A stretch of 10,105 bases of DNA from Candidatus Thorarchaeota archaeon. GTDB lineage: Archaea > Asgardarchaeota > Thorarchaeia > Thorarchaeales > Thorarchaeaceae. Numbering within the stretch: the first letter of the stretch is position 1; each line of letters opens with the position of its first letter. The stretch lies in the NCBI GenBank assembly GCA_019057475.1, contig DXJO01000023.1, positions 1-10,105 of the forward strand, written 5' to 3'. Of the stretch, positions 6,416 through 10,103 are shown one piece after another. A model generated the notes under the pieces. The model ran no database searches and was not told the DNA's origin. It saw only the letters and a list, made by a program, of their open reading frames with translations. The position numbers and the translations under genes are program-made.

Positions 6416-7237
6416 ATGCGTAAGGGATTGCATATCGGAACCAGCGGCTGGTCATATGACGATGACAAAGGCTGGCGAGGTGTCTTCTATCACTCTAGGC
6501 GCTCTCTACTCCAGCAGTATCTTCGCATATTTCACACAGCGGAAATTAATTCGACTTTCTATGCTCTCCCAACTCCAAGCTTCATCAAGCATCTTGCCAA
6601 CATCAAGAACGAAGCTGTCTTCTTCACAGCAAAGCTGCCGAAGAAGGTCACGCATGAGCACAGACTGGACCTGAGCGGTGAGGGCGGAGCTGTACTCTCT
6701 GACTTCTTTTCGCTCATGGAACCTGTGAAGCATCGCCTTGAGGCGTTATTGATCCAATTACCTCCGTGGGACATCTCGAACATGGCAGATGTCGAATCGT
6801 TCTTCTCTGGGCTCGATGATTCATTTAGATATGCAATAGAGTTCCGGCACGAGAGTTGGCTGAACGACTGTGTCTGGAAGCTGCTTGAGGACTATGGCAT
6901 TGCGCATGTGATTGTAGACGAGCCCAAGCTACCAATCAGTCTGCGAGTCACCACCGACTTCGCATACATCCGCTGGCACGGTCATGGCTCTCGTCCATGG
7001 TACAACTACAGATATTCCGTCGAGGAGCTTGAGGCTTGGAAACCTCGCCTTGAAGACCTCATGGGACGATCTGAAACAGTTCTGGCGTACTTCAACAATC
7101 ACTTCAGTGGCCATGCGCCACTCAATGCTTTGCAGATGCTTAGTCTGATGGAGTCTATCAATCCCGGACAGACGATGAAGCTTGAGCGAATGCTAACACA
7201 CATGTCCGTGACCCAGACCTCACTTGATGAGTTCTAA
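6416..7237 (+). CDS. DUF72 (YecE-like) TIM-barrel protein
   Basis: Motifs IGTSGWSY...W...FY, EINSTFY..P, F.AK.PK.VTHE, LIQLPP, AIEFRH.SW, AYIRWHG, Y.YS..EL..W and YFNNH..G.A..NA. Start set at ATG 6416 (MRKGLHIGTSG). Confidence 0.93.
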   Translation: MRKGLHIGTSGWSYDDDKGWRGVFYHSRRSLLQQYLRIFHTAEINSTFYALPTPSFIKHLANIKNEAVFFTAKLPKKVTHEHRLDLSGEGGAVLSDFFSLMEPVKHRLEALLIQLPPWDISNMADVESFFSGLDDSFRYAIEFRHESWLNDCVWKLLEDYGIAHVIVDEPKLPISLRVTTDFAYIRWHGHGSRPWYNYRYSVEELEAWKPRLEDLMGRSETVLAYFNNHFSGHAPLNALQMLSLMESINPGQTMKLERMLTHMSVTQTSLDEF

Positions 7238-7320
7238 GTCCGCAATAGCTGGGATATGAACGCGAGCCAAGCGGAGAACCGACTAGGAACAGTCCCAATG
7301 ATGAATCGGTGCTCTACACT

Positions 7321-7527
7321 CTAAGAACTCATGTTTGTGTAGTATTGGTAAATATAGAGAACGATCCAGAGGATGTCAATCGCGAGAACGGTCATCCACA
7401 TTAGATTTCCAAACCCAAAAGCGAAAACCATATAGACTTGGTAAATGAATGTCCCTGTCCAAAGACGAATGAAGAAAAGGAATACACTCTGTCTGAAGTC
7501 CTTAGTTTCTAATACTACATCAGCCAA
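7321..7527 (-). CDS. Small membrane protein, about 68 aa, two hydrophobic segments
   Basis: A strong GGAGGT ribosome-binding site lies 6 nt before TTG at 7527 (MADVVLETK...). Two long hydrophobic stretches follow. Confidence 0.6.
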   Translation of the reverse strand: MADVVLETKDFRQSVFLFFIRLWTGTFIYQVYMVFAFGFGNLMWMTVLAIDILWIVLYIYQYYTNMSS

Positions 7528-7599
7528 AGAGGTACCTCCACTCCCAACCAATAGACGCTGCTTATGAGGATTTTCAATCTGTTGCTTGATCCTTAAACA

Positions 7600-8079
7600 T
7601 CAGGCATAGTAAGTAGGACCTTGTTTTTCAGACTCCGAAAGCCGTGGTATAGTATCTAGCCCAACAGCCGAGAACAAGAGTTTGTGGAGACTTATGCCTG
7701 CCAAAGTCACATTTCGCATGGCTATGGACAATCTGTCATAACTGAAACCGTCATCAAAGATTCTGTCATAAACCACAAATGGTGACCCTGGCTGAAATTA
7801 AATATCAATATTCAGCGTGGGATATTTCTCTATCACAGCCCCTTTGAACTTCGAATCTCTCTTAGGAGTGTAACGTTTTTCATGTTCTGCTGGCAACATG
7901 AACCGTGCATGGACTGCAATGTGGTCCTTGTTACTATGTCGGACTATAATCATTGCAATGGGCCCTCGTTTTATGCGAAACCTGAATTCAGTTGTATCAT
8001 CGGATATGTCTTCAGGTGAGTGGTTGTTAGCCTGAAGCCACTCCATTATCTCCTTCTTTGTAGGATCTCGTTGTGTCAT
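7600..8079 (-). pseudogene. DUF2299-like protein interrupted by one in-frame TAA (7798-7800)
   Basis: The 93-aa ORF continues in frame after TAA for 65 more codons (FQPGSPFVVYDRIFDDGFSYDRLSIAMRNV...SEKQGPTYYA) to TGA at 7600-7602. I..WL, PAEH and IF.DGF..D.L resemble archaeal DUF2299 proteins; this family assignment is from memory, not a search. Confidence 0.7.
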
Positions 8080-8142
8080 TTAGCATTACCTTGACAATGT
8101 TTTGGCATCTACTCCAATCTTGTTATGTTTCCACTTTTGCAC

Positions 8143-8403
8143 TTAGCACATGCTGGAATGGATTGAGATTCTTCTCCATACTTGCTTCCTTTTGATGGTG
8201 GAAATGCTGATTCTCCAACCCTCAGCACTATTCCATAAACTATGATTGTCAACTGCTTTATTCTTTCGCGTTCTCCTGCAATATATTATAGTAGCGACAA
8301 TTAGTCCAATTGTTCCCACTATTCCAAAGAGAATACCACCAGTAAAATCAACTGGCGGCGCTGCTTGCAACAGTACTAAAACTTGCTTTATTTTATCAAA
8401 CAT
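8143..8403 (-). CDS. Small single-pass membrane protein (3' part possibly degraded)
   Basis: GGGAGG lies upstream of ATG 8403 (MFDKIKQ...). Transmembrane segment GILFGIVGTIGLIVATIIY is followed by a basic stop-transfer stretch RRTRKNK. Confidence 0.55.
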   Translation of the reverse strand: MFDKIKQVLVLLQAAPPVDFTGGILFGIVGTIGLIVATIIYCRRTRKNKAVDNHSLWNSAEGWRISISTIKRKQVWRRISIHSSMC

Positions 8404-8503
8404 TCCCATTCCTCCCTGCCATAACGAGTGGGTCATTTGGTTTTGTCATAATATTTCGCAAAGAAACTGTTTTTGTAGATATAAAAATGGCACTCTCTGA
8501 AGT

Positions 8504-8522
8504 GTTGAGTTTGAAAAATAGA
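8504..8522 (+). repeat. 19-bp direct repeat, copy 1 (GTTGAGTTTGAAAAATAGA)
   Basis: Exact match to 9386-9404; preceded by ACTC at 8492-8495. Confidence 0.95.
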
Positions 8523-8680
8523 GATTTGATAATTGGTGCGTTTTAGTTTAAAGCGTTATAGATAGAGAGAAAGTTGAGTAAGCCAATAGCAGGACTACGA
8601 CAAAGGGAGTTCTTAGAAAAAAGTAAGAGTTTGGACAAAAAAGAACCTATAGATTTGTTTCTTTGTCACACGAGCATGGA

Positions 8681-8723
8681 CAGAAGTTTAAAGAGATAAA
8701 ACCGGTAACATGGTTTAGGTGAT
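8681..8723 (+). promoter_or_regulatory. BRE-TATA promoter and ribosome-binding site for the 8727 gene
   Basis: CAGAAG-TTTAAA at 8681-8692 and AGGTGAT at 8717-8723, just before GTG 8727. Confidence 0.5.
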
Positions 8724-8726
8724 AAC

Positions 8727-9101
8727 GTGCAGGTAAATTTTTGGAACCCACTCACGTTTTTAGCAGTGTGTCTTGGCTTCTTTGTCCTCTTCACTACGTT
8801 CATGTATTCAAAGGGGCTGTTGTGGTTCCAGCATGCCGATGCGGCTGGAACTGATAATTGGCTCGCCACATTTTACGCAAAGGATTTAGCAACAGGAAGC
8901 TGGTGTCGTCGATTTGTTGTGCCGGTTTCTGCATTGTTCTTGCTACTCTCAATACTTAATTCAGTTGTGATGAATTTACTTGAGCTCTCGTCGTTCCAGC
9001 GTCTTATCTTTCTCATGTTCTATTTTCCATCCATTTTTGTTATTGGAATCTTCTTTTTCGTGATGCTAGCGAGGATTAATAGACATGTGCTGGAAACATG
9101 A
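8727..9101 (+). CDS. Hypothetical membrane protein, 124 aa, about three transmembrane helices
   Basis: Three hydrophobic stretches (LTFLAVCLGFFVLFTTFM; FVVPVSALFLLLSILNSVVM; LIFLMFYFPSIFVIGIFFFVMLA) with an upstream promoter and RBS. Confidence 0.7.
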   Translation: MQVNFWNPLTFLAVCLGFFVLFTTFMYSKGLLWFQHADAAGTDNWLATFYAKDLATGSWCRRFVVPVSALFLLLSILNSVVMNLLELSSFQRLIFLMFYFPSIFVIGIFFFVMLARINRHVLET

Positions 9102-9144
9102 ACAACCCAATCCGTGACAAGCGGGAACATCAAAAGAGAAAGGG

Positions 9145-9390
9145 TTCTTGGGTTCGCCAATAGATTCTGTTGTGTTTAATGGATATTCTGACGGTCAAAC
9201 AGAAGAAGTCATATTAGTGGAGATCAAGACGGGAAAACCCAGACTGAGCAAACGCGAACGAGACATTAAGAAAGTAGTTGAAAAGGGTAAGGTCAGTTTC
9301 ATTGAAGTCAACATAGATGAAGGCTTTACCATCACTTCTGAGTTTGTAGAGGACAAGTTTACTGAAGACGAGGACTCATTGCGGCGTTGA
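9145..9390 (+). pseudogene. Holliday junction resolvase-like PD-(D/E)xK endonuclease (Endonuc_Holl type), C-terminal fragment
   Basis: FLGSPIDSVVFNG...ILVEIKTGK.RLS.RE..IK..VE.GKV is the characteristic core of this family. An in-frame TGA at 9115 means the usual N-terminal part is absent. Confidence 0.75.
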
Positions 9391-9404
9391 GTTTGAAAAA
9401 TAGA
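9386..9404 (+). repeat. 19-bp direct repeat, copy 2 (GTTGAGTTTGAAAAATAGA)
   Basis: Exact match to 8504-8522; preceded by ACTC at 9374-9377. It lies 18 bp from the integrase stop and supplies the nuclease ORF's TGA. Confidence 0.95.
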
Positions 9405-9422
9405 ATAAGGTAGGGATTGATC

Positions 9423-10103
9423 CTACCCAAACATCTTCTTGATTCTGTCACGTTCTTCATCTGGGAAAAGTGGTTCAATAGGTTCTTCATCAATACCATA
9501 CAGCCTGCTGAAGAAGTCCTTAACTGATTTGTTGGTGAGATGGGCGTATTTCGTTATTGTATCTGAAGTTTCAGACCAACCCATGAACTTCTTGATGATA
9601 CTCTCAGGAACTCCTAGTTCAATGAGATAAGTAGCCTTGGTATGTCTGAAGATGTGGATTGTTCTAGCACGCTTCCTGACTCCAGCCCTCTGGAAGATGT
9701 CCACGATTTTATCAAGCACTACACGATATGAGATTGGTCTGTCAAGATATCGACTACTGTTGAATACAGGACCACTTAGACGGATTACCAAGTGATACTG
9801 GAAACTTGGTAGATTATCTTTGAGTAATGGGATTTGACGAGACCCGGTCTTACCAATGACGTCCACGTAGAGGAAGTTATCATCTGTGGTAATATCTTCA
9901 ACATTGAGACTAAGTACCTCACCAATTCTACAACCTGACTCAACTAGCAATTCTATCATTGCACGTTCATACAAATCATTGCAGGCTCTCAACAATGCAG
10001 CAATTTCATTAGGAGTCAAGAGGTCACGTCGTCTAATAGCTGAAACTTCTTTGGGTCTTGGAATAGGTTCAATCAACTCAGGACAACCTATCTCTTTGCA
10101 AAT
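9423..10103 (-). CDS. Tyrosine recombinase/integrase (5' end outside window)
   Basis: Complete catalytic set: SGCRIGE (R), GKTG (K), HIFRH (H-x-x-R), MGWS (W at the H/W position) and KYAH (Y). The frame stays open to the window edge (ICKEIGCPELIEP...). Confidence 0.95.
   Translation of the reverse strand: MCKEIGCPELIEPIPRPKEVSAIRRRDLLTPNEIAALLRACNDLYERAMIELLVESGCRIGEVLSLNVEDITTDDNFLYVDVIGKTGSRQIPLLKDNLPSFQYHLVIRLSGPVFNSSRYLDRPISYRVVLDKIVDIFQRAGVRKRARTIHIFRHTKATYLIELGVPESIIKKFMGWSETSDTITKYAHLTNKSVKDFFSRLYGIDEEPIEPLFPDEERDRIKKMFG

Follow-up and report, generated by a model that had tools for sequence, protein, structure and literature searches.

Introduction

Ordinary tyrosine recombinases need an identical overlap sequence between their binding arms, whereas IntDOT does not (PMC2817482), and integrases of the IntDOT/Tn916 family carry arm-binding domains and serve elements whose ends bear target-derived spacers (PMC2817482). 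In archaeal integrons, the attI site has been reported immediately downstream of intI, with a GTTRRRY-like core and with inserted genes facing the site (PMC9668308). Archaeal mobile elements integrated in tandem, as reviewed in PMC8371274, exchange modules and combine XerA/SNJ2-like two-domain integrases and intergenic targets with mosaic modules and loss of the integrase after integration, and the archaeal integrase IntpTN3 offers a precedent for low-specificity recombination of homologous DNA (PMC8371274). Among Asgard archaea, Yucahu-i of Atabeyarchaeia (PMC11529989) has a tyrosine integrase beside a Holliday-junction-resolvase gene, circularizes, and bears a short non-tRNA att repeat whose two identical copies delimit a 10.9-kb element including the integrase. 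The orphan arrays of the V. cholerae T6SS Aux1 cluster (bioRxiv 10.1101/2021.05.28.446156) carry variable-length displaced tails of an anchor gene, which are the footprint of homology-facilitated illegitimate recombination (HFIR). Here we compare with these systems a 19-bp direct repeat beside a Thorarchaeota integrase gene, and conclude that its copies are probably two paralogous terminator/promoter copies stemming from module accretion in a mosaic element, not att sites. Neither this integrase nor its locus figured in any paper returned by our literature search.

Results

The repeat and its genomic setting

The window, by which we mean the whole 10,105-nt stretch analysed, is the complete contig C1 of a 3.3-Mb Ca. 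Thorarchaeota MAG (G000) whose closest named relative is Ca. Thorarchaeota CSMAG_1051 (G, C and L numbers denote genomes, contigs and loci). Host genes stop at DUF72 near ~7.3 kb, with accessory DNA from there rightward and a drop in GC from ~50% to 40% at the same place. A tyrosine recombinase gene runs off the contig, whose 127-nt overlap with C45 (at its end) and C17 (at its start) implies that this gene continues on C45, beside the divergent rpl13e. A second integrase, 97% identical, lies on C17, all 21 kb of which look accessory. Within the window, positions 7280-8106 hold more variable cargo, including a 93-aa ORF at 7798-8079, and are replaced by 257 bp in the related genome G004; a gene fragment at 7494-7572 is common to C17, L058, and L059. 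The features around the repeat are as follows.

6416-7237, plus strand: DUF72 host gene, which closes the variable rpl13e-DUF72 interval on its far side; it and the promoter repeat are separated by 14-34 bp in six empty genomes
8107-8449, minus strand: zinc-ribbon gene (46 aa, CxxC..CxxC), interrupted by a membrane-protein ORF at ~8220-8433
8480-8487, minus strand: TATA-like box of putative function, 30 nt before the zinc-ribbon gene start and directly after the site
8492-8522: copy 1, A-type spacer; a 31-bp segment of ACTC arm, 8-bp spacer, and 19-bp block, between two divergent TATA boxes
8504-9385: 882-bp indel, consisting of 863 unique bp and one 19-bp block; five alleles lack it and four have it with the same junctions
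8523-8699, plus strand: promoter (TATA-like, 8547-8554) and truncated small ORF (8574-8699), with 26/56 in-register matches to C17
8679-9143, plus strand: membrane-protein module with an intact 124-aa ORF (8727-9101); 96% identical copy on C49
9143-9390, plus strand: Holliday-junction-resolvase-like nuclease remnant (PF10107), 3' part, 76/229 codons, cut at both ends
9374-9404: copy 2, B-type spacer; a paralogous 31-bp segment whose 19-bp block supplies the integrase terminator with its T-rich tail
9408-9428, minus strand: terminator-like hairpin overlapping the integrase stop codon
9423-10105, minus strand: tyrosine recombinase (PF00589), 3' two thirds; the contig ends inside the gene, which encodes 291 aa in L034 (646-1521)

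The 19-mer occurs at 8504-8522 and 9386-9404, 882 bp apart, and both copies have ACTC, the reverse complement of the GAGT within the repeat, 8 nt upstream (8492-8495 and 9374-9377), with copy 2 lying 18 nt from the integrase stop codon (9423-9425, minus strand). All positions and spacings given in the preliminary description, which had reported a 19-bp direct repeat with ACTC arms near this stop codon, were thus reproduced exactly. Because exact repeats of at least 19 nt arose in 0 of 500 order-3 Markov resamples of the window, and ACTC-N11-GAGT has two matches there against 0.12 expected, the repeat is not a product of chance. Perfect identity of the copies is strain-specific (17/19 in G004, 18/19 in L058), and their spacers agree at only three of eight positions, so the identical overlap of an attL/attR pair is missing.

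Only these two exact copies exist in the 3.3-Mb genome, together with a copy bearing three mismatches on C17 and a half-site on C38; the motif does not recur genome-wide, as the preliminary description had anticipated, and a genome-wide terminator or repeat family is excluded. A tRNA target is excluded as well, there being no tRNA in the window. Across the genome, the 11-nt spacing of ACTC and GAGT was not enriched relative to spacings of 8-14 (70 versus 59-72). A pattern search of 86 genomes of the family returned true homologs only in G000, G004, and G005, the remaining matches being dissimilar to the element, and the 18 pattern matches in viral contigs all lay in unrelated context, with no close relative of the integrase. 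The rpl13e arrays of other genera gave only scattered 4-mismatch matches to the site.

Empty and filled alleles

Comparison of alleles revealed forms with and without the 882-bp piece, and all differences between empty and filled forms map to the 19-bp block, inside which the crossover falls. Five alleles (L034, L035, L059, L060, and L189) carry a single site directly behind the integrase, joined to the DNA found left of copy 1. These are the empty, single-copy alleles looked for in an attL/attR pair, and they bear out the earlier expectation of a gene-content breakpoint at the repeat. By spacer, four of them are A-type and one (L059) is intermediate. The same insert with the same junctions fills the window, G004, L058, and L062 (which ends within the insert), and other segments take its place in L061 and C17. 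Identity between the two copies stops exactly at the spacer edge. Since the unique part of the insert is 96-98% identical in the three complete carriers (96.1-97.6% among the window, G004, and L058), the filled form reflects one old event; all filled alleles having identical junctions, the repeated integration that had been proposed is not supported. The insert was found behind integrase haplotypes 93-100% alike, and the presence of the same cargo behind them shows allele exchange close to the junction.

The cargo itself consists of truncated genes with three odd junctions, and the 882-bp insert is gene debris. Its nuclease remnant reads into copy 2 for a stop codon, and full-length relatives end two codons past the junction. 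The natural 3' end of a resolvase-like gene at L169:712-740 resembles site A when aligned by eye (15/20 with one gap), a likeness that possibly caused the junction. The membrane-protein module has a 44% homolog in the rpl13e array of G001. On C49, co-oriented repeats of 60-140 bp (762-896, 6520-6623, 7353-7490, and 8377-8442) lie between membrane/surface protein genes, and one of them abuts the copy of the window's membrane-gene module. Behind the same integrase, L189 carries different cargo (1224-1960), with DpnII-MboI-like (PF18742) and DUF2321 genes, likely defence genes.

Flanks, spacers, and arms of the two copies

The preliminary description had read each copy as an invariant element end joined to a degenerate target arm. 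Left of copy 1, homology among all alleles runs through the TATA-like box to the zinc-ribbon start codon, and the same TATA-box spacing precedes the intact zinc-ribbon genes of C17, C38, L059, and L189 in the alignment. The left flank of copy 1 is thus conserved zinc-ribbon promoter DNA and not a degenerate target arm, and the spacer of copy 2 is a known allele, so this reading fails at both copies. Copy 1 equals the single site of the empty alleles L035, L060, and L189, and the copy 2 spacer agrees at 6/8 positions with the spacers of C17 and the L059 single site. The spacers form one family, with the consensus RCNNCARW in 18 of 19 copies. Two allelic types exist in the population, A in copy 1 and most alleles and B in copy 2, C17, L059, and L189, with intermediates between them.

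Of the claim of inverted arms, part stands: two B copies (C17 and L059) keep the pairing through a compensatory change to ATTC/GAAT, but the arms are broken in 5 of 19 copies. In a homolog from another genus (G071), the promoter-side half is kept and a different, longer palindrome is present. From its position before the zinc-ribbon promoter, we suggest an operator/BRE-like role for the segment. Neither ACTC-N11-GAGT nor GCA-N6-TGC is enriched between the genes of G000, which excludes a general promoter palindrome and leaves position as the basis of the putative operator role; the promoter roles of the segments are likewise inferred from where they lie. In the Atlas, the zinc-ribbon gene, which is intact in C17, C38, L059, and L189, matched only small hypothetical and zinc-ribbon clusters.

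On the other side of copy 1, the module at 8523-8699 is a distant homolog of the ~60-aa ORF module bordering the site in C17, L059, and L189: over 56 nt, the 26 in-register matches to C17, which include the start codon and TATA box in a register first set by eye, compare with 176 of 100,000 shuffles. The ORF at 8574-8699 had also been considered as a TIR fragment, a candidate dropped for lack of a family match and because the alignment with the 60-aa ORF module was better; the 61-aa ORF had no match in the Atlas. In the window, L061, C17, L059, and L189, the block is joined at about the same base, a recurrence that at first sight suggests site-specific capture, and L061 has 46 bp next to the site in common with C17 and L059. 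Because these five are homologous in the DNA beside the distal sites as well, the recurring junction was inherited from one divergent-promoter module comprising the small ORF, the site, and the zinc ribbon.

Displaced integrase tails and sites without an integrase

The element repeatedly gains modules, such that the 3' end of the integrase is replaced and the old end, with its sequel, is pushed downstream. Second copies of the integrase 3' end lie downstream of new cargo in L059 (~45 bp), C17 (~54 bp), and L189 (~100-125 bp); in C17 and L189, the older intact module comes next. Such tails of an anchor gene, variable in length and set beyond new cargo, point to homology-anchored module accretion at this locus. 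The second integrase of C17 (L028:677-2257) has had its 3' end replaced, and a gene of the insert, which has a weak C-terminal Cap12/TIR-like match (E 0.02), is possibly anti-viral.

The site also occurs without any integrase, inside inserts of ~0.9 kb (C38) and ~0.7 kb (G005:C147) that are bordered by 28-31-bp host-promoter duplications and have empty loci in sister genomes. It lies 65 bp (C38) and ~190 bp (G005) inside these inserts and therefore not at an element border. The two inserts (L030:7029-8012 and L057:2035-2738) occupy different host promoters, each duplication starting at the TATA box, and share the short motif GAAGYCGGCATCCC just before the far copy; they are possibly one family of promoter-targeting modules. 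Among the three distant integrase homologs examined, L053 (72%), L054 (67%), and L063 (~46%), the site was not found after the integrase stop, where L054 has only a T-tract and AACTC. A box beside the upstream repeat of L054 (contig positions 9880-9912) and copy 2 share the nine bases ACTCATTGC, whose orientation with respect to the integrase is reversed between the two; this may be chance.

The integrase and the rpl13e promoter repeat

The integrase is catalytically complete, with R124, K150, H215, R218, W241, and Y251 invariant in 14 homologs, as a nearby attL/attR pair would require. Its best fold match is archaeal XerA, with an all-helical core-binding domain and a catalytic domain that align to lambda Int 75-356; we found no arm-binding domain, no IntI insertion, and no extra domain around patch III. 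Scores were 89 for the XerA model (cut-off 220) and 45 for TIGR02249 (IntI; cut-off 265), and a close homolog is present in 2 of 41 genomes. A Xer/dif system, with its single-copy 11-6-11 site and housekeeping recombinase, is excluded by the 4-5-bp arms, the several copies, the XerA score, and this narrow distribution. On C45 (the L029 3' end, C45:63199-63518), residues 1-106 of the integrase are 77% identical to L034 and the rest 96-97%; judged by its sequence, the C45 integrase is a mosaic gene.

In L034, the entire 1.86-kb element is flanked by two copies of a 17-19-bp sequence that belongs to the rpl13e promoter (C45:63123-63141). This promoter repeat was located in L029 (G000:C45:63123-63141), L034 (570-588 and 2428-2446), and L094-L133; the window holds no copy, the far one having been lost in this allele. 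In six genomes the rpl13e-DUF72 interval spans 14-34 bp, and elsewhere it reaches as much as 6.8 kb; 12 of 36 such loci contain 2-5 repeat copies, forming family-wide cassette arrays in which the same modules occupy different slots with exact ends. The integrase starts 73-78 nt from the repeat at nine loci (five intact genes, and remnants in four other genomes), and duplications immediately ahead of the gene are likewise present in homologs at other loci (L054, L063). Of the 26 internal repeat copies, 16 are preceded by a GC-N8-GC box, which stands before 1 of 35 first copies and none of the 6 empty ones, counts that are not independent since the genomes are kin; this distribution is as would be expected of an element-side arm. 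The likeliest att site of the integrase is thus the rpl13e promoter repeat, which lies beyond the window, ~75 bp ahead of the integrase start, and we infer that the integrase builds the promoter-repeat cassette arrays. With this better candidate upstream, and with the site internal cargo in two inserts, the proposal that the 19-bp repeat is the integrase att site is not upheld. In six genomes of one genus (G085, G086, G088, G094, G095, and G097), rpl13e was matched in two pieces, some with an 80-240-bp gap, possibly through an intron, insertion, or frameshift.

Discussion

Under module accretion, the paralogous segment would combine the integrase terminator tail with an operator/BRE-like stretch ahead of the zinc-ribbon promoter. 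One homology-anchored capture, with a crossover in the integrase gene or terminator and a second junction that was either illegitimate or at the shared block, may have set a B-type copy and nuclease/membrane-gene debris ahead of the A-type copy, gain and loss both being conceivable directions. Filled and empty forms would later have been interconverted as the 19-bp blocks recombined and alleles were frequently exchanged. Against this stand the crossover that always falls in the 19-bp block, a short tract for recombination of the RecA/RadA type, the inverted arms with one compensatory change, and the empty allele L059, whose B-like spacer and A-type flanks are as expected if excision left either spacer.

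These same observations are where the adjacent integrase might come in, with the repeat as its second, relaxed-overlap cassette site of the IntDOT/Tn916 kind, having ACTC/GAGT core arms, 8-bp coupling sequences, and an 882-bp circle that enters and leaves there, an amended version of the preliminary proposal. The clean indel at the site, identity that ends exactly at the spacer edge, the compensatory ATTC/GAAT arms, the existence of both A-like and B-like empty alleles, and the native nuclease-gene end resembling site A all agree with it, and IntDOT tolerates mismatched overlaps (PMC2817482). We nevertheless regard this as unlikely, as the arms are only 4-5 bp and broken in 5 of 19 copies, the spacers are one homologous family and not derived from unrelated targets, the site is internal in two inserts and not seen in three more distant homologs, the integrase has no N-terminal arm-binding domain and a better att upstream, and the supposed element end amounts to 7 bp and then a truncated gene. 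In a variant that likewise seems to us unlikely, a small XerA-like integrase directed at a ribosomal-protein promoter would have a second, different site downstream of the integrase gene; this site, with arms of 4-5 bp and mismatched 8-bp spacers, would admit cargo in the manner of attI. Rather doubtful, too, is low-specificity recombination by the integrase between short homologies in its own element, as by IntpTN3, with the block a substrate by homology: the dense short-tract mosaicism around the integrase would suit it, but IntpTN3 activity is reported for identical segments of at least 104 bp (PMC8371274).

The repeat does start with a match to GTTRRRY in its first seven bases and sits just downstream of the integrase, where archaeal attI has been reported (PMC9668308), yet neither strand folds into an attC-like hairpin before either copy (z -0.23 to +1.18), and the TIGR02249 score and patch III region speak against IntI; with the attC fold and IntI domain missing, an archaeal integron is contradicted and very improbable. 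An assembly artefact or chance repeat has a negligible probability. The contig does end in a collapsed integrase repeat common to C17 and C45, but the same filled allele, at 96-98% identity, in three independent assemblies refutes it, as do the Markov resamples.

As best explained by module accretion, the repeat is an ordinary, well-documented module-swapping scar in an Asgard mobile element, and it warns that integrase-adjacent repeats need not be att sites of that integrase. An intact 291-aa integrase is available from the locus, and both the rpl13e promoter repeat and the 882-bp-indel site are candidate substrates for it, so that one in-vitro comparison can test whether the integrase builds the Thorarchaeota promoter-repeat arrays. 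If the second site works, it would be a new relaxed-spacer capture site, and if the integrase truly uses both sites, the locus would hold an integron-like capture system that lacks attC hairpins.

Comparison with known systems

Set beside IntDOT/Tn916-family elements (PMC2817482), the locus is alike in that their mode of exchange would account for different spacers at the two junctions, but neither the arm-binding domains nor the target-derived spacers of these elements are present. With archaeal integrons (PMC9668308) it shares the site just downstream of the integrase, the GTTRRRY-like core, and inserted genes that face the site, and differs in having no attC hairpin and no IntI additional domain. 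Yucahu-i (PMC11529989) is likewise an Asgard element with a resolvase gene beside its integrase and a short non-tRNA repeat; here, however, gene debris lies between the repeat copies and the integrase outside them. The tandem archaeal elements (PMC8371274) resemble this one in their two-domain integrase, intergenic target, mosaic modules, and integrase loss after integration, whereas here the probable target is a ribosomal-protein promoter and the repeat is internal, not attL/attR. The T6SS Aux1 arrays (10.1101/2021.05.28.446156) are alike in the crossover within an anchor gene, in a second junction without long homology, and in an old tail of variable length pushed outward, with the difference that the anchor here is the integrase gene itself and the displaced pieces are non-coding terminator/promoter segments on which no selection is evident.
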